DNA from: Deltaproteobacteria bacterium
GTDB taxonomy: Bacteria; Desulfobacterota; JAJRXV01
Reading direction: 5' to 3'
Length of the DNA: 12,418 nt
Assembly: GCA_024276115.1 (NCBI GenBank)
Contig: JAJRXV010000034.1
Coordinates: 1-12,418, forward strand
Numbering within the stretch: position 1 is the stretch's first letter; every line of letters starts with the position of its first letter. Of the stretch, positions 1-12,014 are shown piece by piece. The position numbers and the translations under genes are program-made. Below the pieces are notes generated by a model. The model ran no database searches. It was not told the DNA's origin and saw nothing but the letters and a program-made list of their open reading frames with translations.

Positions 1-115
1 ATGTTGTAAGAACATCGTTTGACTGCTCACTGTTTATTTTACCGACATTAGAGTCAATACAAGTGTTATTGCAGAAAATAAACCTAAATGGCGTTAATAG
101 TCAAGGGAGAGTGTA

Positions 116-478
116 ATGTCTATAAAAGTCTTAGTCGTCGATGATGCGCCGGTTATTAGAATGTTATTAAAAAGTATTCTAGAGAAAAGTGGCTTTACAG
201 TTGTTGGTGAGGCTGGAAATGGAAATGAAGCTCTGGAAAAATATAAGGAACTTTCGCCTGATGTTGTCACTATGGATATCACAATGCCAGAAGCTAGTGG
301 AATTGATGGAGTCAAGAATATATTAGGATTCGAACCGAACGCCAAAATTGTTATGATTACTGCCTTGGATCAGAGAAAATTTCTGCTCGAAGCGATAAAG
401 GCTGGGGCTGTTGATTATATTGTTAAACCGTTTGAGGATGAAAGGGTCATCTCAGCATTAAAAAAAGCGATTTCATAA
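116..478 (+). CDS. Single-domain CheY-like response regulator receiver protein (120 aa)
   Basis: Translation shows canonical receiver-domain residues: acidic pair VVDDAP near the N-terminus, phospho-acceptor Asp in VVTMDITMP, conserved Thr in MITAL and Lys in IVKPF. No output domain. GGGAG Shine-Dalgarno 7 nt upstream of ATG at 116. Confidence 0.9.
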   Translation: MSIKVLVVDDAPVIRMLLKSILEKSGFTVVGEAGNGNEALEKYKELSPDVVTMDITMPEASGIDGVKNILGFEPNAKIVMITALDQRKFLLEAIKAGAVDYIVKPFEDERVISALKKAIS

Positions 479-487
479 GAGTTAAGG

Positions 488-2608
488 TTACCGTTTGTTT
501 TCAACCTTTAACATCAGTTCCTTTCTATCGGCTAGTAATAAATTATTATGTCCTAACCTATTAATTTCTGATATTTTACCTGCCTGCCCCAGTAATCCGT
601 AGATATCTACAAGCCTTATATAGTTGTCAAGAAGCCCGGGGTTGTTTTTAATTGATAAAACAAAGTATTTTTCAGCGACCAGATAATTTTCCCTGAACTG
701 ACTTATTATACCGAGCTTGTTGTACGCCTCATCGATAGCCTCTTTATTATCAATCATTTTATTGAAAATCTTTTCAGCTCGCTCCAAATCCCCTTTCTTG
801 ATACTCATGACACCTAACAATAAGTGCATGTTACTTATATCGTTATCTTTTAGTGAATTCCTCAGGTCAGGTCCAAAGACTTTTGTCATTGAGTCAAGCA
901 TGTAGCTCACATTATCCAGATAACCATAATCCAGAAAATAATCTATGCAGTCAGTAAAAAGTTGTATATAAACAAAATCAGATTCTCTATCATGTCGAAA
1001 CTCAATATCATTAATAAACCTGAATATTTTTTTATTGAAATAATTATCTAACTTAATAACTTCTGAGTTGCTCAAGCTAACAACCTCACTCTCAGAAAAC
1101 TCAAACAATACTCCGTCAAAATACCTAAGCCGCCGACTCAGCCCACGATATTTAGAGACAGCTTCAGTAAAAATCCTATAACCATTACCTAAATTCAAAC
1201 TTAAAAACTCCAATATTTTAGAGGGTTTTGAAAGCCTTTTCTCAGATGCTAAGTACTTTATATTAAATTCCCCTGAAAGTTTTGAAGCGCTAAAATGCTT
1301 TGGCGAAAATATTTCCCCATACCCTACAAGCGCCAGGTCCCTACGTAACCCTAAAATATCCTGATAGTAACGATAATGAAAATACAAGTATCCAACCAAT
1401 ATCATAGAGTTTTCTGGTAGCGACAGGTACGCCTCCTTAAACTCATCCTCTCCTGTATATATGTTAGTTTTACTAACGTCTTGAAAATTTCTTGCACCAT
1501 TTATCAGAATAATCACAGAAAAAATACTCAAGAGTACGTACTCGGCCTTTTTTCGTCCAGGTAAGTAATCATTCACTCCAAACCATTCGAGAGAGTAGAA
1601 TATACCTATAGAAATCAGAATCATATAGCATATATATGAAGGAAGTTGAACGCCTCCATTCCAGTCGATGAAAAAAATTGTATTCGAAAGCAAGATTGTA
1701 TTGATCAAATAAAATAGGCTTTTTCTCATCTGGTATAACTTCTTAACTCCAATTACGGCAAATAAAATACCAAGAACTGTTATGTTAGAGTTCAAGGCTT
1801 TCATGTAAGAAATCATGTTTTCTAAGAAAATTGAAAAACTGTTAAATCCCGCAAAGTGACTATATGCAGTTTTTCTGTCTGTAATATGAGCTATAAAGTT
1901 TGCAATTGTCTCAGGATTGCCCCAGTCAAACGATGGGTTGGTAAGGGAGCGAAGTGGTAGAAAAGCATATACAGAGAAACCCATCAGAAAAAATAAGCTT
2001 ATCCAGAGGAATCGCGACATTTTTTTCTCTTTATTTTCCAGCAGGTAGAATATTAACACTCCTGGCAGGTAAAAAACTACAGTGGCATGGTTTCCAGATG
2101 ATAGCCCGTACAGAAAGGCGGTTACAAAAAAATACCTGATATCTTTAGTGCGAATAAACGTTACAGCAAGAAAGATAATCATAACAGTGAAAAACGCGTT
2201 AAGGGTATAAACTTCTGAAGTAACTGCGTTTCCCCAACAATATTTATTGACAAAGAATAACATAGCTACAGCAATAGCAACTATAAGAGAGCGAGACTCC
2301 TCCTTCTCTTTATTAAAAAAGAGTAGTATCTCGTAACATGTTAAAAACAAGAAGCAGACTGATGCGGCTGCAGAAATAAGAGAAAAAAGGTTAGCTCTAA
2401 ATGCTATTGAACCAATGGGAAATAACGATAACAGCTTTGCAAACAACGAATAAGTAGGAAACCCAGCAGGATGCGCAATACCTAATGTGTATGAGAGGTT
2501 AGCAAACTCAGGCGTATCACGCCAATTTATTGTAGGCGATACAGTCAGTAAGTAAACACCGGCAGTAATTAAAAAAACAAAATAAGACGTTTGGTATTTT
2601 TTTGCCAT
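488..2608 (-). CDS. DUF2723/TMEM260-like GT-C-fold integral membrane glycosyltransferase with C-terminal TPR-repeat domain (706 aa)
   Basis: N-terminal half has about 10 or more hydrophobic helices. First loop carries INWRDTPEF...LGIAHPAGFPTYSLFAKL, which I recognise as the DUF2723 signature (W-x-D-S/T-x-E-F ... GIAHPPGYPL), a family that resembles protein O-mannosyltransferases. C-terminal roughly 250 aa is helical and TPR/Sel1-like (YNKLGIISQFRENYLVAEKYFVLSIKNNPG...). AAGAGGA RBS 4 nt before ATG at 2608. Only 12 bp downstream of the pilin stop on the same strand. Confidence 0.7.
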   Translation of the reverse strand: MAKKYQTSYFVFLITAGVYLLTVSPTINWRDTPEFANLSYTLGIAHPAGFPTYSLFAKLLSLFPIGSIAFRANLFSLISAAASVCFLFLTCYEILLFFNKEKEESRSLIVAIAVAMLFFVNKYCWGNAVTSEVYTLNAFFTVMIIFLAVTFIRTKDIRYFFVTAFLYGLSSGNHATVVFYLPGVLIFYLLENKEKKMSRFLWISLFFLMGFSVYAFLPLRSLTNPSFDWGNPETIANFIAHITDRKTAYSHFAGFNSFSIFLENMISYMKALNSNITVLGILFAVIGVKKLYQMRKSLFYLINTILLSNTIFFIDWNGGVQLPSYICYMILISIGIFYSLEWFGVNDYLPGRKKAEYVLLSIFSVIILINGARNFQDVSKTNIYTGEDEFKEAYLSLPENSMILVGYLYFHYRYYQDILGLRRDLALVGYGEIFSPKHFSASKLSGEFNIKYLASEKRLSKPSKILEFLSLNLGNGYRIFTEAVSKYRGLSRRLRYFDGVLFEFSESEVVSLSNSEVIKLDNYFNKKIFRFINDIEFRHDRESDFVYIQLFTDCIDYFLDYGYLDNVSYMLDSMTKVFGPDLRNSLKDNDISNMHLLLGVMSIKKGDLERAEKIFNKMIDNKEAIDEAYNKLGIISQFRENYLVAEKYFVLSIKNNPGLLDNYIRLVDIYGLLGQAGKISEINRLGHNNLLLADRKELMLKVENKR

Positions 2609-2620
2609 TGTCCTCTTATA

Positions 2621-2986
2621 TTACGGTGTTACACCATCTGTTGTAACCGTGTATGTTATGTCCCCCGCAGTGTGCCGAATATCAATAGCGTCATAAGAAG
2701 TAGTATTGGCATTTGCAATGTTAGCCGGTAGTGTAAGACCAGCATCATTATCAATAGTGGAATCATAAGCAATCAGCTCAGCCATAGTAGAAGCATAAGA
2801 AGAGGTTGAAGAGGCAGCTCTGAAATTCTCCTGCGCCATCATAATCTGATTCGCGACTATTTCTGCTCTTTTGTTGTATCCTCTGGTCCTATAACCCATA
2901 TACGACGGTATAGCAACAGCGGCGAGTATACCTAAGACCGCGATTACAATCATTAATTCTATAAGAGTGAATCCTTTTTCTTTCAT
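2621..2986 (-). CDS. Type IV pilin / pseudopilin precursor with class III (prepilin peptidase) signal peptide, about 121 aa
   Basis: MKEKG|FTLIELMIVIAVLGILAAVAIP is the classic short basic leader, Gly-1/Phe+1 cleavage site, Glu+5 and hydrophobic N-terminal helix. Start chosen at ATG 2986, with AAGGA RBS 6 nt upstream, rather than the TTG at 3013 reported by the ORF track. Mature C-terminal half is Ser/Thr-rich and lacks Cys. Confidence 0.85.
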   Translation of the reverse strand: MKEKGFTLIELMIVIAVLGILAAVAIPSYMGYRTRGYNKRAEIVANQIMMAQENFRAASSTSSYASTMAELIAYDSTIDNDAGLTLPANIANANTTSYDAIDIRHTAGDITYTVTTDGVTP

Positions 2987-3055
2987 AGTAAGCGTCCTTT
3001 CATATCTTAACAAAAGTAGATGTAAGTAATGATACTTCTATCACCACTACTAAAA

Positions 3056-3084
3056 AGTATACCACACATTTATAGTAAATGCAA
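3056..3084 (-). promoter_or_regulatory. Putative sigma70 promoter of the pilin-glycosyltransferase operon (-35 TTGCAT, 17-nt spacer, extended -10 TGgTATACT)
   Basis: Minus-strand reading gives TTGCAT-17nt-TATACT with a TG dinucleotide at -15/-14. It lies about 65 nt upstream of pilin ATG and immediately downstream of the csp-cluster terminator. Confidence 0.45.
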
Positions 3085-3088
3085 TTTT

Positions 3089-3112
3089 TATTGGTTTTAA
3101 TATTGGTTTTAA
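3089..3112. repeat. Perfect 12-bp tandem direct repeat TATTGGTTTTAA x2 just upstream of the pilin promoter -35
   Basis: Direct reading: tattggttttaa tattggttttaa at 3089-3100 and 3101-3112. Confidence 0.8.
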
Positions 3113-3156
3113 TAAAAAAAGGTGAGGGGGATCTATAGTGATAGCCCCCCTCACCT
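3113..3156 (-). terminator. Rho-independent terminator ending the csp cluster
   Basis: Perfect 11-bp GC-rich stem AGGTGAGGGGG / CCCCCTCACCT with a 14-nt loop. It is followed on the minus strand by a U-run (A8 on the plus strand at 3113-3120) and lies 40 nt downstream of the csp stop at 3196. Confidence 0.85.
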
Positions 3157-3195
3157 CATTGATTAAGGTTTAAGATGATAGTAGTGTAATAACAA

Positions 3196-3414
3196 CTAGT
3201 TATTTGCGTTACTAGCCTTTACAACATTTTGAGCTTGTAGACCTTTTGGTCCTGTTGTGATCTCAAACTTTACTTCCTGACCTTCTTGTAATGATCGAAA
3301 GCCTTCGTCCTGAATCGCGGTGTAGTGTACAAACACATCTTCACCCTCATCCTGCTCAATAAATCCAAAACCCTTTGTGTCGTTAAACCATTTTACTTTT
3401 CCTGTTACTTCCAT
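3196..3414 (-). CDS. Cold-shock protein, CspA family (72 aa), copy 1
   Basis: [19 protein letters not shown] (RNP1 motif KGFGFI) and VFVHY (RNP2), typical CSD length. GGAGGGG RBS 7 nt upstream. Confidence 0.92.
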
Positions 3415-3475
3415 GTTTTCCCCTCCATAAATACAAACAATATCCTACCCAAAGTAGGGACATGAGCAATTAAGC

Positions 3476-3685
3476 CTAGTCGTTTTGAATACTTACGTTC
3501 TGCGCCTGCAGACCTTTTGGTCCTTGAGTAATTTCAAACTTCACTCTTTGACCTTCTTTTAATGTACGGAATCCTTCGTCCTGAATTTCAGTGTAGTGAA
3601 CAAATACATCATCACCACCATCTTGCTCAATAAAGCCAAAACCCTTTGTGTCGTTAAACCATTTTACTTTTCCTGTTACTTCCAT
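3476..3685 (-). CDS. Cold-shock protein, CspA family (69 aa), copy 2
   Basis: Same motifs as copy 1, with an identical RBS/5' UTR core. Confidence 0.92.
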
Positions 3686-3755
3686 GTTTTCCCCTCCATA
3701 AATACAAAAATTAATCCTACCTCAAGGCAGGTTCATAAAGTTCATAAAATTAATA

Positions 3756-3965
3756 TTAGTCGTTTTGAATGTTTACATTCTGCGCCTGAAGACCTTTTGG
3801 CCCCTGAGAAACTTCAAACCTTACACGCTGACCTTCTTTTAAGGTGCGAAATCCTTCCTCCTGGATCTCTGCGTAGTGAACAAATACATCCTCACCACCA
3901 TCTTGCTCAATAAATCCAAAACCCTTTGTGTCGTTAAACCATTTTACTCTTCCTGTTACTTCCAT
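3756..3965 (-). CDS. Cold-shock protein, CspA family (69 aa), copy 3
   Basis: Start moved to the internal ATG at 3965 ([12 protein letters not shown]...). This matches the paralogue N-termini and has a GGAGG RBS. The 19-codon N-terminal extension in the ORF track ([19 protein letters not shown]) overlaps the RBS/UTR and is rejected. Confidence 0.85.
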
Positions 3966-4210
3966 GCGTACTCCTCCAAAAAAATTTAATATGCTCAAAT
4001 ATCTACGATATTCTGAACTCAATTATATACAAGTGTATGCCTTACACCTAAAAGGCGTTATATTATGCTTATTAATCTTAAGTGGATTAAAAAGAATGAT
4101 GAATGCAATAACTAGACACCAACATAAAGTTGATATAACTAATGAGTGCGAAGACACACAACTATAAATAAAACAAAATTCCATACAGACTTACACTTAC
4201 TCTTACTAAA

Positions 4211-4489
4211 TTATTTACTATTAACTCTTTCTCTAAGCTCTTTGCCTACCTTAAAGAAAGGAAGTTTTTTGGATTTAACCTTAATATGTTCGCCTGTCTT
4301 AGGGTTACGACCAGTATACGAACCATACTCCCGGTTTACAAAACTACCAAAGCCACGTATTTCAATCCTGTCATCTGCTTTGATCGCGTCCTTCATTGAA
4401 TCAAAAATAATATTTATAACTTCTTCAGCTCGTCGCTGAGTTAGATTGGCTTTATTTGATAATGTTTCGACTAGCCCTGACTTATTCAT
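4211..4489 (-). CDS. HU/IHF-family nucleoid-associated DNA-binding protein (92 aa)
   Basis: Hallmark beta-arm region RGFGSFVNREYGSYTGRNPKTGEHIKVKSKKLPFFKVGKELRERV and N-terminal MNKSGLVETLS... are typical of HU/IHF. GGGGGA RBS upstream. Confidence 0.9.
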   Translation of the reverse strand: MNKSGLVETLSNKANLTQRRAEEVINIIFDSMKDAIKADDRIEIRGFGSFVNREYGSYTGRNPKTGEHIKVKSKKLPFFKVGKELRERVNSK

Positions 4490-4532
4490 AAGTCCCCCTG
4501 AAAAGTAATAATATACAACATTTATTAATTAA

Positions 4533-4785: not shown

Positions 4786-6474
4786 CTATTTTTTTACGTT
4801 CATCCCCTGCAACAAATTACTCGCGCCCAAAATCGCCGCGGCACCCTCAAGACCTCCTGAAGCACCCTGAACATATACATTCGGTACTTTTACGATATCC
4901 GGCTGTTCTGTCGCCGCCGCGAGAATCTTCTCCAGCACACTCAACTGCATTACCCGCGCCTCACCAAGCACCTTCACCTGCGCCTTCTGACCGGTCGCTA
5001 TCTCAAGAAGTTTAAGTTTCTCACCCTCACCAAGCTTCTGAAGCGCGAGTTTCTCCTGCTCTGCTATCTTCACTTGCATCTCAGCCTTCACCAGATTCGG
5101 TTGTTGATCCGCCTCAGCACGTGATTTTTCACTCTTGATACGCTCATCCTGCGCTAGTTTCTCCTGCTCATACGCCTTTTGTAGCTGTCCGGCCAACTGC
5201 TCACGCTGGCGCGCGGTCAAGAGTTCCGGTGGTATCGCCGGATCGCCAAAACGCACTTCTCTGATAGAAATCCCCGCCTTACTCCCTTCTGGACGTATCA
5301 TCTCCTCAACAAGATCCTCAAGCTCATTACGCTTATCCTGTAAATCAAACACACGCCGCCCCTCGGCGCCGGTGACATTCCTCACAACACTTCTTATCAT
5401 CGGTGATAATATCTTATCCTCAACCTCTTCAAGCCCTCCGACCGACGCGACGACAAACGGCGCGTCTTTCGGGTCTACCTGTACTTGTATCCTGAGATCC
5501 AGCGGTATCTTCCACCCCTCTACAATAAGCGGTATCGCACGGTCAACAGCGTCTGCCGGTACCGGTATTTCTTTTTTGCGCTCTTTCTGTGTGATCTTCC
5601 CCTGCTGATCGACGACGAGGTCTATACTCCGCCTTGAGTACCCCCCTATGTGCTTCCATGTCTGAACGAGAGTCGATATCTTAGTGATGACATAAGCGCG
5701 TCTGTTGAGATAGTACATCCCTGGATAAAGCGGCTCATCCCACACACCTATGCACCCTTTTTTCACCAGCGGCACCGATAACGAGCCCTCTTTTGTCGTA
5801 TCGACCCGAGAGCAGTCATCTATTTCCTGCACATTGGACTTGATGACACCGACTTCACCCGTGCTGATACTAGTCGCTGACTCAAGGGTCAACTGAAAGA
5901 GGTACATGTTCATCCGGTAGTTACCCGGTTTTAAAACGCTCAGTTGTGGTCCCTTCTGCCCACCGTTTTTCAAAAAATACTCCGCGTTTAACATATCCTG
6001 AAATTTATCGTCAGGCCAGCCATCCGCGAGGTACTGCTTCTTCCGAAGCGGTTTCCCATCGAGTGCGGTAACAAGCCCATACTGCCCCTCGGGGATTTTG
6101 ACTAGCGCTTTCTCTTCTATTTCATACAAAATATTCAGGAGCAGTTCAAAGTGAAACCCTGGCGCCAGTATACGAGCCTGCGGACCGTTTTCGCCGTCAT
6201 ACGCTATCACTTGCCCCGGAGGCATACTCCCGCCACCGAACACACGTTTCAAGTGCCCTACCCTGTCTGAGTCGATCACAACAAACGAAGTGCTGATAAT
6301 AGCGAACAGAAATACCAACACCCCCAAACCTCGCGCGCCCATCCGCGCCAAATGTTCTACCTTGCGCTTTCGCGGATCTACCACAGCTTGTGAGTTTAAG
6401 ATATTTGTGACGACCGATGGGCCGACAAAGAATATAAAGAGTGCGACAATTAGCAAAAATACTGAAAATGGCAT
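4786..6474 (-). CDS. Flotillin-like SPFH/band-7 family membrane protein (562 aa)
   Basis: Two N-terminal TM helices, then an SPFH-like start (HLKRVFGGG...ARILAPGFHFELLLNILYEIE). A long coiled-coil region is rich in E/K/A/Q (QREQLAGQLQKAYEQEKLAQDERIKSEKSRAEADQQ...). The C-terminal tail AAATEQPDIVKVPNVYVQGASGGLEGAAAIL resembles the bacterial flotillin (FloT/YqiK) C-terminus. GGAGG RBS 7 nt upstream. GC-rich codon usage. Confidence 0.65.
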   Translation of the reverse strand: MPFSVFLLIVALFIFFVGPSVVTNILNSQAVVDPRKRKVEHLARMGARGLGVLVFLFAIISTSFVVIDSDRVGHLKRVFGGGSMPPGQVIAYDGENGPQARILAPGFHFELLLNILYEIEEKALVKIPEGQYGLVTALDGKPLRKKQYLADGWPDDKFQDMLNAEYFLKNGGQKGPQLSVLKPGNYRMNMYLFQLTLESATSISTGEVGVIKSNVQEIDDCSRVDTTKEGSLSVPLVKKGCIGVWDEPLYPGMYYLNRRAYVITKISTLVQTWKHIGGYSRRSIDLVVDQQGKITQKERKKEIPVPADAVDRAIPLIVEGWKIPLDLRIQVQVDPKDAPFVVASVGGLEEVEDKILSPMIRSVVRNVTGAEGRRVFDLQDKRNELEDLVEEMIRPEGSKAGISIREVRFGDPAIPPELLTARQREQLAGQLQKAYEQEKLAQDERIKSEKSRAEADQQPNLVKAEMQVKIAEQEKLALQKLGEGEKLKLLEIATGQKAQVKVLGEARVMQLSVLEKILAAATEQPDIVKVPNVYVQGASGGLEGAAAILGASNLLQGMNVKK

Positions 6475-6633
6475 AAAAAACCTCCAATCTGATTTTAAAA
6501 AGAATATATCTACATACTACAGGAAAAAAACGAAATGTAAACATATTATAACGACCAAGAACAATTTATGCAGATTAGTTTTTTAAGTGCTGACAATATA
6601 TGTGTTGTTGCCAGCCGTTACATTATTAACTCA

Positions 6634-7614
6634 TCATTCCGAATTCTTCATTCCTAAAGCTCTCTCCATCAATCCGCAGATCATATCATCATACGAAAAT
6701 CCGGCTTTTTCAGCCTGTATCGGGTACAAGCTACAATGCGGTGACAAGCCCGGCAGCGCGTTTATCTCGAGTATCTGCGGCACGCCGTTTTGGTCGATTC
6801 TGATGTCGAGCCGCGCGAGGTCTTTCAGGTCGAACAGCTCAAACGCCGCCAAAGTGTACTCCTGCATTTCCCGCTCCAGCGCTAAAGGAACCTTAGCCGG
6901 GCACTCAAGCGTCTCCTCGATGTGCAGCTTACACTCATACGAGTAGAACGGGCTCTTACCCTCGTGGAATATCACCTCAATGAGCGGTAGCACATGCGTC
7001 GTTTCGGTCTGCAACACCGCTGACGCGAACTCACGCCCATCGACAAACGCCTCGACCAGCGCCGGTTGCCGGTAGTGGGAGAGCACCCACTCCACCTGCT
7101 TTTTGAGCTGGTCAGAGTCGATCACCTTAGAGTGGTTGCGGATACCCTTGCTCGTCCCTTCACGCGACGGCTTGACAAACATCGGAAATCCGAAACCGAT
7201 ATCAGAGAGGTCAGAAACGTCAGACACCAGCTTGAAATCCGGTGTCGGGATGCCTTCGGCACGCAATATCCGCTTTGTATGCGCCTTGTCGAGCGTCAGA
7301 GAAAGCGAAAGCGCGTCTGAGCCGGTGTGCGGTATCCCCATCATCTCAAATATAGTCGGGGCGTATCCTTCCCGGTTGCGACCACCGAAACCCTCCGCAA
7401 TGTTGAATACCGCGTCAGGTTTCGCGCGTAGCACGTTCTCTATAAACTCCGCGTTGCACGGAAGGTGCACAATATCACTCGAAATGTTCTTGAGTGCGTT
7501 ATGGATTGCGTCGATCGTTTCGCGCTCCTCATACTCCGCGGCGCTGTCGATTATATGCGTCTCATGCAAAGTCTCATCAGACTTAAGGTTATAAGCAAAA
7601 CCTATTTTTGTCAT
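6634..7614 (-). CDS. D-alanine--D-alanine ligase family ATP-grasp enzyme (326 aa), atypical member
   Basis: Central and C-terminal blocks align to Ddl: GFGGRNREGYAPTIFEMMGIPHTGSDALSLSLTLDKAHTKRIL, FPMFVKPSREGTSKG and RLDIRIDQNGVPQILEINALPGLSPHSLYP. The N-terminus lacks the usual GG(K/T)SAE(R/H)EVS motif. AAGGAAG RBS 5 nt upstream. Confidence 0.8.
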   Translation of the reverse strand: MTKIGFAYNLKSDETLHETHIIDSAAEYEERETIDAIHNALKNISSDIVHLPCNAEFIENVLRAKPDAVFNIAEGFGGRNREGYAPTIFEMMGIPHTGSDALSLSLTLDKAHTKRILRAEGIPTPDFKLVSDVSDLSDIGFGFPMFVKPSREGTSKGIRNHSKVIDSDQLKKQVEWVLSHYRQPALVEAFVDGREFASAVLQTETTHVLPLIEVIFHEGKSPFYSYECKLHIEETLECPAKVPLALEREMQEYTLAAFELFDLKDLARLDIRIDQNGVPQILEINALPGLSPHCSLYPIQAEKAGFSYDDMICGLMERALGMKNSE

Positions 7615-10393: not shown

Positions 10394-11821
10394 CTACTTA
10401 CCCATCACCTCATCCCACGAGAACACCTGCGCGCTGAAAAGGTATATCTCGGTATCATTATCCTTCCACGCGTCCCTGCCAAGCCCGGCTTTGTTGCATG
10501 TCTGCTCGAGGAACGTCTTTGAGTCCCAGCCGTATTCGGTCGCTACCTGCGGCAGGAGTACCCCCCGGTTGTAACCTTGTATTATGTATATACCGTGCTT
10601 GCCCACTTCTATCTCAGTTACATCGCGCGTCCTTCTCATTGGTGTGAGGACAGATATTTCGTACTTCAGCTCATCTAGCTCGCTTGCGGTGACGGTCGGG
10701 AAGCGCGGGTCTTGAGTCGCCGCGCTCATAGCCATATCGACGATATTATCGCAAAGCGGCTTGTCAGAGGTGAAGTTCCCGATGCAGCCTCTGAGGCGTC
10801 CATCCTTCTTGATCGTGACGAAAACACCGCTTTTTTCGAGCAGATTCGGGTTCTTTATCTCTCTGAGCTTTGGCTTTTTCTTGCTTTTTATGTATCCATC
10901 AACCGTATCCTTCGCGATCTTCAACAGTTGCTTCTTTTCGTTCAGCGTCAGCTCCTTACCCTCGCTGGCGCCTTTCTTCGCGCCCTCAGTGTGATAAAAA
11001 GCGACAGCAGCGTAACCGACCACTTCTGACGTGGGTCCTTTTTCACCGGTAACATCACCTGAGTTGGCAGAGTGAAGCATCCTCGCGTCACCCGCGCCGA
11101 GACGGTTCATCACCTTGAGCAACGCCTCTACCGGGAGTATACCGCAAAGCTCAGAACTCTTCGCCGCGTTCTTCCGCGTCAGCTCTGTGTCAGACATCTT
11201 TAGTATCGACTCAAACGCGGAGCTGTCCATCTTTTTCGCGGTGTTATAGTTGTGATAATGGGAAAAATCAGAGCTAGCGATAATCAGAATATTCTTCCGC
11301 GTCGCTATCTCAGTGAGCGCGTCGACAAAATTATCTGTCGCCGATCTATCAGGAGCGCCGAGCACCGCTACGACTATCTTCACATCCTTAAAAACCGTTT
11401 GCAGGAATGGTAATTGCACCTCTAGCGAATGCTCTTGAGCGTGCGCCTCTTTGACGTAGCTTACGCCATCTATTGCTGACAGCTCCGCGGCTATCTCCTC
11501 ATCGACCCGCATATCACCGAGCGGAGTCTGATACACGCCACCCGGGAATACCGATATGCCTCTGAAATACGCGCGATGGCTCGGCCCGAGTAGTATTACG
11601 GTATCGATCTTGTCAGGCGCGGTAATCGTGTTGTACGAGTACGCCGCGACACCACCGGAGTAGATGTAGCCCGCGTGAGGTACTATCAACCCCAGCGGGT
11701 TGCCGGCTGGTAACTCAGGCAGTTTCGCCTTTGCGCTAAAATCAGTTATCACTTTCTTTATCTCTTTCGGGTCTGCCGGGTAGAACGCTCCGGCTACAGC
11801 GGGTTTTCTCACCAGGTTCAT
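10394..11821 (-). CDS. Fused AmmeMemoRadiSam system protein B (MEMO1-like) plus protein A (AMMECR1 domain), about 475 aa from ATG 11821
   Basis: N-terminal half: PAVAGAFYPADP, LIVPHAGYIYSGGVAAY, LLGPSH, HAQEHSLEVQLPFLQ, SSDFSHY and VVGYAAVAFY are MEMO1-family hallmarks. C-terminal half: GVFVTIKKDGRLRGCIGNF, ATQDPRFPTV, LLPQVATEYGWD and CNKAGL are AMMECR1 hallmarks. Start set at the internal ATG with a strong AAGGAGGAG RBS. The ORF-track extension begins at a TTG. Confidence 0.85.
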   Translation of the reverse strand: MNLVRKPAVAGAFYPADPKEIKKVITDFSAKAKLPELPAGNPLGLIVPHAGYIYSGGVAAYSYNTITAPDKIDTVILLGPSHRAYFRGISVFPGGVYQTPLGDMRVDEEIAAELSAIDGVSYVKEAHAQEHSLEVQLPFLQTVFKDVKIVVAVLGAPDRSATDNFVDALTEIATRKNILIIASSDFSHYHNYNTAKKMDSSAFESILKMSDTELTRKNAAKSSELCGILPVEALLKVMNRLGAGDARMLHSANSGDVTGEKGPTSEVVGYAAVAFYHTEGAKKGASEGKELTLNEKKQLLKIAKDTVDGYIKSKKKPKLREIKNPNLLEKSGVFVTIKKDGRLRGCIGNFTSDKPLCDNIVDMAMSAATQDPRFPTVTASELDELKYEISVLTPMRRTRDVTEIEVGKHGIYIIQGYNRGVLLPQVATEYGWDSKTFLEQTCNKAGLGRDAWKDNDTEIYLFSAQVFSWDEVMGK

Positions 11822-11985
11822 CCTCTTTCTCCTCCTTGGAGTTTTTTTCGGTGCGGTATTTTTTGTCTTGGTGACACTCTTGTCGTTATTTTTCGCGGGG
11901 CTCTTCTCACTACACGAAGCTGTGACAAAAGTGACAAAAAGTATCAACAACAGTAATTTTTTAATAATAAACTCCTTATTTCAAA

Positions 11986-12014
11986 AGTATATTTGACATA
12001 GTTTCGCTTGTCAA
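11986..12014 (-). promoter_or_regulatory. Near-consensus sigma70 promoter (-35 TTGACA, 17-nt spacer, -10 TATACT) upstream of the AmmeMemo fusion gene
   Basis: Minus-strand reading: TTGACAagcgaaactatgtcaaaTATACT. It would give a leader of about 158 nt. Confidence 0.5.

Follow-up and report, generated by a model that had tools for sequence, protein, structure and literature searches.

A TMEM260-like GT-C glycosyltransferase gene paired with a type IV pilin gene: a candidate pilin O-glycosylation cassette in a Deltaproteobacteria bacterium

The stretch of DNA analyzed in this study, referred to below as the window, comprised 12,418 nucleotides (nt) of contig JAJRXV010000034.1 from a Deltaproteobacteria bacterium (GenBank assembly GCA_024276115.1). 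The genes of interest were a type IVa prepilin gene and, 12 nt downstream on the same strand, a gene encoding a 706-residue membrane protein with a tetratricopeptide repeat (TPR)-like domain. Our analysis placed the 706-residue protein firmly in the TMEM260/GT117 family by sequence comparison and indicated, from sequence and structural modeling, that it is probably a periplasmic, pilin-directed O-glycosyltransferase acting on the adjacent pilin. The coordinates, gene order, strand, 12-nt gap, and separate ribosome-binding site of the downstream gene were all as described in the original prediction, an earlier note made from the sequence alone. The pair and its parts were arranged as follows:

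Positions 2621-2986, minus strand: type IVa prepilin gene, with ATG at 2986 and stop codon at 2621-2623, encoding 121 residues (116 mature).
Positions 2786-2812, minus strand: Ser/Thr-rich loop SSTSSYAST (prepilin residues 59-67, mature residues 54-62), immediately past the N-terminal helix; the region proposed as acceptor.
Positions 2609-2620, minus strand: intergenic spacer of 12 nt, with the ribosome-binding site AAGAGGA at 2611-2617, four bases ahead of the GT-C ATG.
Positions 488-2608, minus strand: TMEM260-like GT-C gene (PF11028, CAZy GT117), with ATG at 2608, encoding 706 residues.
Positions 1469-2608, minus strand: transmembrane GT-C module, residues 1-380, with 11 helices reaching residue 378 in the model.
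Positions 1085-1441, minus strand: Rossmann-like alpha/beta domain, residues ~390-508, predicted to be periplasmic, with an invariant Asp424.
Positions 491-1081, minus strand: TPR-like helical repeat domain, residues ~510-706, predicted to be periplasmic, with helical repeats at 514-705 in the model.

The Pfam profile PF11028 (TMEM260-like, formerly DUF2723) matched residues 31-195 of the 706-residue protein at 2.4e-31 and 109.3 bits, against a cutoff of 24.2, and the match spanned profile positions 1-177 of 179. The motifs WRDTPEF and GIAHPAGFP, which had been quoted as a DUF2723 signature, were both present in the first loop. Human TMEM260 (PDB 9rql_A) was matched at 1.7e-27 by the single 706-residue sequence and at 1.2e-50 by a seven-sequence profile without the TPR part. 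Identity to the human protein was low, and the profile search alone aligned both the membrane and the Rossmann-like domains, its alignment to the human Rossmann-like domain reaching chain residue 469. Homologs of the window protein were labeled by NCBI as “DUF2723 domain-containing protein,” “protein O-mannosyl-transferase family,” or “glycosyltransferase family 117 protein,” and neither Pfam nor NCBIfam matched a Wzy_C domain in the 706-residue protein at E <= 0.01.

The AlphaFold model of the protein, built with 35 homologs in the alignment, was confident (predicted local distance difference test, pLDDT, 88.6; predicted template modeling score, pTM, 0.87) and displayed the anticipated GT-C fold with 11 transmembrane helices. 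The original prediction had described the entire C-terminal half as TPR-like, which was borne out for residues ~510-705; residues ~390-508 were instead Rossmann-like in the model, with strands at 401-405, 426-429, 478-482, 494-498, and 501-504 and flanking helices. Pfam TPR models stayed below threshold on the 706-residue protein and matched many of its homologs, mostly weakly, and the TPR “asparagine ladder” of human TMEM260 and OGT appeared as a degenerate pattern in the window sequence. In human TMEM260, a GT-C core (24-415), a Rossmann-like domain (416-564), and a TPR domain (565-706) were described in a cryo-electron microscopy preprint, in which the TPR and Rossmann-like lobe keeps the acceptor segment extended (bioRxiv 10.64898/2026.03.17.711096).

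Loop 1, predicted to be periplasmic, carried Asp31 (codon 2516-2518) and His46 (codon 2471-2473), and residues D31, E34, H46, P47, G49, and P51 were invariant or nearly so among the 35 homologs. The loop after helix 7 carried the motifs YxxLPxR...P...P and TDRK. In the profile alignment to 9rql, human D52 corresponded to D31, H67 to H46, and R264 to R245/K246 of TDRK, all three columns being invariant or nearly invariant in the family, and human Y267 and R355 had no conserved bacterial counterpart. D52, H67, and R264 were essential in the human enzyme by mutagenesis (bioRxiv 10.64898/2026.03.17.711096). Asp31, conserved and aligned with human D52, was in the place where a catalytic acidic residue of loop 1 had been expected.

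The pilin and glycosyltransferase genes form a transcription unit of their own, since a terminator lies at the end of the cold-shock gene upstream of them. Two transcription features were recorded in this region:

Positions 3114-3155, minus strand: intrinsic terminator of the upstream cold-shock gene, with stem GGTGAGGGGG/CCCCCTCACC followed by TTTTTTT; RNAfold -27.8 kcal/mol.
Positions 3056-3084, minus strand: possible sigma-70-type promoter (TTGCAT, 17 nt, TATACT), read from the sequence and weak.

The terminator was missed by the terminator scanner, as its loop exceeds the scanner's 8 nt. Between the two genes, no strong hairpin or terminator was found, in agreement with the original prediction; the 83 nt from the pilin stop onward (2541-2623) gave a weak fold of -13.4 kcal/mol. 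The promoter that had been placed at 3056-3084 did not hold up as well, as its -10 hexamer matched at five of six bases and its -35 hexamer at only three of six, and the promoter scanner made no call there. A sigma-54 promoter was considered because related loci carry a PilR-like activator, and an inspection by eye upstream of the pilin revealed no GG-N10-GC element. An Rfam scan of the window returned no RNA family, and PADLOC returned no match for the pilin or the GT-C protein; the cassette is not a catalogued defense system.

Conservation of the pairing was determined by using the family alignment to scan GTDB genomes, one for each species. The 79 loci kept were drawn from the best-scoring 80 of 548 relatives and matched at 25-46% identity; those with 450 nt or more of sequence upstream (73 loci) were testable. 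A prepilin gene was located directly upstream on the same strand in 63 of the 73, and the adjacency noticed in the window was therefore kept across several phyla. The pilin was upstream in every testable Nitrospinota locus (33) and in every Nitrospirota locus (10), and the pairing was also found in Thermodesulfobacteriota and “Deltaproteobacteria” metagenome-assembled genomes, in two Binatia-like loci, in one Mariprofundaceae locus (Zetaproteobacteria), and in one Patescibacteria locus.

Adjacency could in principle be inherited synteny with no functional meaning, and the three closest relatives (46-49% identity) did keep the whole order of HU, cold-shock, pilin, glycosyltransferase, and CheY genes, with gaps of 9-13 nt; a relative in GCA_024275075.1, a “Deltaproteobacteria bacterium” metagenome-assembled genome, showed 46% identity. 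At 25-35% identity and in other phyla, however, the flanking genes differed completely between lineages and the pair was still kept. In Ca. Nitrohelix, the pair stood alone between unrelated genes of the opposite strand, and on a 601-kb metagenome contig (L083) it lay in a gene run headed by PilMNOP and a sigma-54 activator, with further glycosylation genes after them. The persistence of the pair across phyla in changed flanks indicated functional coupling over inherited synteny, to which we assign a probability close to negligible.

The same pattern bears on whether the enzyme has a broader role, either as a general periplasmic protein O-glycosyltransferase comparable to PglL or as a transferase with lipid A, peptidoglycan, or exopolysaccharide as acceptor, in which case the pilin would lie beside it through co-regulation or as one abundant client. 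A general enzyme of this kind is unlikely. The unit recurs as a minimal pair of genes in many unrelated contexts, with the pilin directly upstream on the same strand in most testable loci; Nitrospirota duplicate pilin and enzyme together; and human TMEM260 is protein-specific, its TPR domain binding the acceptor peptide. A pilin-directed enzyme remained the better account of the pairing.

The duplicated arrays were found in the Nitrospirota loci L051, L053, L057, L058, L068, L070, L073, and L078, each with two TMEM260-like paralogs and two or three pilins in the order GT-C, pilin, pilin, GT-C, GT2, which suggests that the enzyme was duplicated together with its pilin. The spacing between the genes also varied among relatives. 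Of 53 related loci from beyond the window's clade (L005-L078), 51 carried a strong GC-rich hairpin after the pilin stop and before the GT-C gene, typically folding at -25 to -40 kcal/mol within the 80 nt after the stop and often followed by a T-run. By analogy with pilin accessory genes in other species, the hairpin resembles a terminator or attenuator and would hold expression of the enzyme well below that of the pilin. The window and its three closest relatives carried the 9-13 nt gap in place of the hairpin.

A second association, which the original prediction had not foreseen, was with a probable donor-supply gene. Clustering of the open reading frames from the 79 loci identified a GT2 glycosyltransferase of ~316 residues in 48 loci, and in 40 of those 48 it followed the GT-C gene on the same strand, starting no more than 350 nt past it and in many cases touching it. 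The linked GT2 aligned to AglJ over its full length, further matched PpgS, PgfS, and ArnC, and had the Pyrococcus dolichol-phosphate-mannose synthase as its best PDB match; on account of these matches, it looks like a polyprenyl-phosphate-sugar synthase, with its greatest resemblance to polyprenyl- or dolichyl-phosphate hexose and HexNAc synthases. Polyprenyl-phosphate-sugar synthases are the class of enzymes that make donors for GT-C transferases. Together, the conserved adjacency and the GT2 linkage supported the central proposal of the original prediction, a pilin O-glycosylation module.

The linked GT2 would have no role if the 706-residue protein were a non-catalytic pilus assembly or scaffold factor acting through its TPR domain, comparable to PilF/PilW or to accessory proteins of the TfpY type. 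Some homologs are labeled by JGI as “Tfp pilus assembly protein PilF,” a label that reflects the TPR repeats only, and accessory genes that follow pilA are not always enzymes, TfpY being an example (PMC11841053). The invariance of the donor-site residues across phyla argues for retained catalysis, and a scaffold role is very improbable.

In 18 Nitrospinota loci (L013-L056), the GT2 gene was adjoined by a gene for a YfhO-like (PF09586) membrane protein of ~700-770 residues, lying after GT2 in most loci and before it in L031 (L031:6409-8709). The YfhO-like protein showed C-terminal similarity to PgfM1/PgfM2 of Streptococcus mutans and may be a second GT-C-type transferase of the cassette.

The proposed acceptor was a recognizable type IVa pilin. 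The prepilin had a class III signal peptide (MKEKG|FTLIELM...): MKEKG, a short basic leader closed by Gly, was followed by FTLIELMIVIAVLGILAAVAIP, which has Glu at position +5 and continues as a hydrophobic helix, and the protein matched PF07963 N_methyl at 5.9e-10 and TIGR02532 at 2.1e-9. Its AlphaFold model (pLDDT 91.7) had a pilin fold, in which DSSP gave residues 8-58 as a helix, 59-66 as irregular, 67 as an isolated bridge, and 68-74 as a short helix; a small beta-sheet came next. The only significant match of the model to a solved structure was PilA4 of Thermus thermophilus (6xxd), with a TM-score of 0.73 and 34% identity. PilA4 carries O-glycans on Ser59, Ser66, and Ser71 of the equivalent “glycosylation loop,” and these glycans are tetrasaccharides (PMC7203116, PMC13039148). 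Both pilins have an N-terminal helix, the loop with its short helix, and a small beta-sheet; they differ in that the window pilin has no cysteines, and the enzyme that glycosylates PilA4 is not named in PMC7203116 and PMC13039148.

The Ser/Thr-rich mature pilin had been regarded earlier as a plausible source of acceptor sites. This view was sustained by the SSTSSYAST loop and by the other enzyme-linked pilins, which were mostly 110-125 residues long when mature and had a median Ser plus Thr content of 28% beyond residue 53. By analogy with PilA4 and from the model, the features of the pilin support the acceptor idea without proving it.

From these observations, the two genes could be understood as a pilin O-glycosylation cassette. 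The GT-C protein would reside in the inner membrane with its Asp31/His46 site and its Rossmann-like and TPR domains facing the periplasm, and it would take a single sugar, most likely from a polyprenyl-monophosphate-sugar donor, and move it to Ser/Thr hydroxyls of the membrane-anchored pilin ahead of polymerization. The likeliest target would be the Ser/Thr-rich loop after the pilin N-terminal helix. By analogy with human TMEM260, the TPR and Rossmann-like lobe may hold this pilin segment extended, and the TPR-like domain is proposed to be the pilin-binding module. That the pilin receives the sugar is our inference, as are the site of attachment, the kind of sugar transferred, and, for the window, where the donor comes from. 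We lean slightly toward a wider interpretation, in which the bacterial TMEM260/GT117 proteins of this clade are dedicated pilin O-glycosyltransferases that form a third family, independent of PglL/TfpO and of TfpW, with a linked polyprenyl-phosphate-hexose synthase, and that place single sugars on the post-helix loop.

Several observations weigh against this understanding of the enzyme and its acceptor. In human TMEM260, the catalytic base is D441 in the Rossmann-like domain (bioRxiv 10.64898/2026.03.17.711096). In the sequence alignment, on which this comparison rests, D441 falls within two residues (RgdL) that the human protein has in excess of the bacterial profile, and the bacterial proteins offer no conserved acidic counterpart. 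The reaction may for this reason proceed differently from that of human TMEM260, perhaps with Asp31 serving as the base, a role of the kind proposed for other GT-C enzymes. Among the relatives retained, the most distant had no pilin (Anaerolineae, zero of four; Gemmatimonadota, zero of one), indicating that the link to pilins holds for a subfamily and not for all PF11028 proteins. The converse check, starting from the pilin, gave a mixed outcome: for three pilin homologs (~40% identity) looked up on long contigs, no TMEM260-like gene came next, while other proteins combining GT-C and TPR domains flanked two of them and the third had none. Neither a GT2 gene nor a flippase gene was found within the 12.4-kb window, and its donor supply is therefore assumed to lie elsewhere in the genome. 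Finally, Ser/Thr richness is widespread among pilins and is little proof alone.

The surroundings of the pair in the window were also surveyed. Three tandem cold-shock-domain genes (3196-3414, 3476-3685, and ~3756-3962, minus strand) lay directly upstream of the pilin unit, and an HU gene was also upstream of it (cold-shock/HU region 3196-4022 and 4211-4489, minus strand). The HU/cold-shock order was common to the closest relatives (L001-L003), in which two to four cold-shock copies were found. On the plus strand, a gene for a CheY-like single-domain response regulator (116-478) was convergent with the GT-C gene, with 9 nt between the stops; in L002 and L003, the CheY-like gene was the last of a chemotaxis cluster of CheB, response regulator, CheA, CheD, CheC, and CheY. 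The guanine-cytosine content of the window was uneven, at 0.34-0.40 over 1-4500 (response regulator, glycosyltransferase, pilin, cold-shock genes, and HU), 0.46-0.55 over 5000-7500, and 0.48-0.52 over 10500-12000.

The remaining genes examined were all on the minus strand. A 562-residue SPFH/Band 7 protein (4786-6474), which has a membrane segment at its N terminus and a long tail that is charged and coiled-coil-like, had no NCBIfam match. An ATP-grasp protein (6634-7614) resembled D-alanine--D-alanine ligase and scored 182 bits against a Ddl cutoff of 243; it may ligate another substrate. At 10394-11950, an open reading frame of 518 residues encoded a Memo-like protein (AmmeMemoRadiSam system protein B) fused to AMMECR1 (system protein A), with a basic, lipoprotein-like N-terminal extension and no radical SAM partner within the window.

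The literature searched, in which one paper mentions the DUF2723 domain, contained nothing linking DUF2723, TMEM260, or GT117 to pilins and described no function for the widespread bacterial DUF2723 proteins. With the present proposal, the bacterial relatives of a human disease enzyme gain their first concrete hypothesis about a substrate, and the cassette of pilin, GT117, and GT2 turns it into one that can be tested in the laboratory, with a predicted substrate and donor supply, catalytic residues, and a likely acceptor loop. If true, the pilin would be the first natural substrate for bacterial relatives of TMEM260, a human congenital-disease enzyme; the mechanism of TMEM260-type protein O-glycosylation would become open to study in a simple bacterial model, and site-directed protein glycoengineering might gain a new tool. 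Such an outcome would likewise suggest that TPR-guided, protein-specific O-glycosylation by the TMEM260 family predates eukaryotes. Pilin glycans, such as those added by TfpO and TfpW, affect phage adsorption and surface behavior. Pilin glycosylation would, if the proposal is true, extend to little-studied phyla, including the nitrite oxidizers Nitrospina and Nitrospira, relatives of sulfate reducers, and iron oxidizers.

Among known glycosylation systems, human TMEM260 was the closest in family. It is a protein-specific O-mannosyltransferase for IPT domains, with a TPR domain that holds an extended acceptor peptide (bioRxiv 10.64898/2026.03.17.711096). The window protein shares with it PF11028, the three-part build, and the conserved donor-site residues D52, H67, and R264. 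Human TMEM260 is an enzyme of the endoplasmic reticulum with an IPT acceptor, whereas the window protein is predicted to belong to the bacterial inner membrane and periplasm, with a pilin proposed as acceptor, and on the alignment described above, the base D441 is not conserved in it.

The established enzymes of periplasmic O-glycosylation of type IV pilins, PglL of Neisseria and TfpO/PilO of P. aeruginosa group I, have the Wzy_C/O-antigen-ligase fold; they take oligosaccharides already assembled on undecaprenyl-diphosphate carriers and transfer them en bloc. The likeness of the window system to these enzymes is the proposed pilin target and the gene position, as tfpO likewise lies directly after pilA; the difference is that no Wzy_C domain was found in the 706-residue protein. 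The three-component Gtr-type systems and the S. mutans Pgf system, built of a GT2 synthase, a flippase, and a GT-C transferase, are similar in their combination of GT2 and GT-C, in which a membrane-anchored GT2 makes a polyprenyl-phosphate-sugar that the GT-C enzyme uses outside the cytoplasm, a logic seen in the 48 related loci with GT2. The linked GT2 matches PgfS, and the YfhO-like Nitrospina protein matches PgfM1/M2. In contrast to Gtr and Pgf, the acceptor proposed here is a pilin and the GT-C enzyme is a GT117 member, neither GtrC nor YfhO. No gene for a flippase was recognized, and the window carries the GT-C gene only. Cyanobacterial Ogt was considered as a relative and rejected, being a GT41 O-GlcNAc-transferase homolog with N-terminal TPR repeats and a different fold family.

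Other pilin loci carried enzymes of similar build. In L085:5457-9428 and L087:5388-9413, from other Thermodesulfobacteriota, the pilin homolog (~40% identity) was flanked by a convergent gene for a ~710-residue membrane and TPR protein, followed by a ~600-residue PMT_2 (PF13231) and TPR GT-C protein and then by PMT or GT2 genes. Apart from their TPR repeats, these GT-C and TPR proteins did not resemble the window enzyme; they are not orthologous to it and are possibly closer to the TfpW type. A paper on cable bacteria depicts such a cluster of pilin with GT-C and TPR proteins without interpretation. Enzymes of this build seem to have been recruited repeatedly to pilin loci; if the proposal for the window enzyme is true, then together with the PMT_2 and TPR genes near related pilins, it would mean that GT-C combined with TPR was recruited to pilin loci more than once.

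The nearest functional precedent was TfpW of P. aeruginosa, reportedly described by Kus in 2008 as the group IV pilin D-arabinofuranosyltransferase. The tfpW gene lies directly after pilA and is co-transcribed with it, and the protein has 11 predicted transmembrane helices, a GT-C fold, and a periplasmic C-terminal TPR domain (bioRxiv 10.1101/2020.04.19.049825). It takes D-arabinofuranose from a polyprenyl-monophosphate-sugar donor and attaches it to Ser/Thr residues of the pilin, which in Pa5196 are mainly Thr64 and Thr66, and TfpW and its homologs share the conserved motifs DDX in loop 1 and YX6PFX7P in loop 4 (bioRxiv 10.1101/2020.04.19.049825). The original prediction had taken the known pilin transferases to be of the Wzy_C type, which TfpW, a GT-C and TPR enzyme encoded directly after pilA, contradicts. 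Given this precedent, the concept is known, and what is new is the enzyme family: the earlier claim that a different transferase family was recruited to pilins stands for TMEM260/GT117, and its suggestion that such an enzyme lacked a non-Wzy_C precedent does not.

The window enzyme could in principle be a divergent TfpW ortholog, new only in its taxonomic spread. The two share the gene position directly downstream of the pilin on the same strand (with a 12-nt gap here) and, TfpW being known by description, an architecture of ~11 transmembrane helices, GT-C, and C-terminal TPR (646 residues in TfpW versus 706 here); in both, loop 1 on the periplasmic side bears an essential acidic motif, and the motif of loop 4 includes proline. 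However, DDX and YX6PFX7P were absent from all 35 family members examined, and by comparison with the published motifs, loop 1 here reads [RK]-D-x-P-E-F and loop 4 YxYLPxRSxxxPxxDWGxP. A search seeded with the Mariprofundaceae protein returned only PF11028 proteins of environmental lineages and none from genera with reported TfpW (Pseudomonas, Acinetobacter, Kingella, Azotobacter, or Teredinibacter), and a plasmid tblastn returned Bacteroidota DUF2723 only. The linked donor gene is a GT2 resembling a polyprenyl-phosphate-hexose synthase, as opposed to the DprE1/DprE2 arabinose pathway, and DprE1/DprE2 genes were neither in the window nor seen in the gene tables of L083, L084, and L085. The hosts are Nitrospinota, Nitrospirota, Thermodesulfobacteriota, and Zetaproteobacteria, versus Gamma- and Betaproteobacteria for TfpW. 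A mere divergent ortholog of TfpW is quite unlikely. The pilin-linked TMEM260-like enzyme also shares a feature with the pilin accessory genes of other species, for which a stem-loop between pilin and enzyme has been reported, as was seen in most of the related loci. The system is best filed as one that resembles TfpW in its logic, is drawn from the TMEM260/GT117 family, and is usually accompanied by a hexose-type lipid-sugar synthase.

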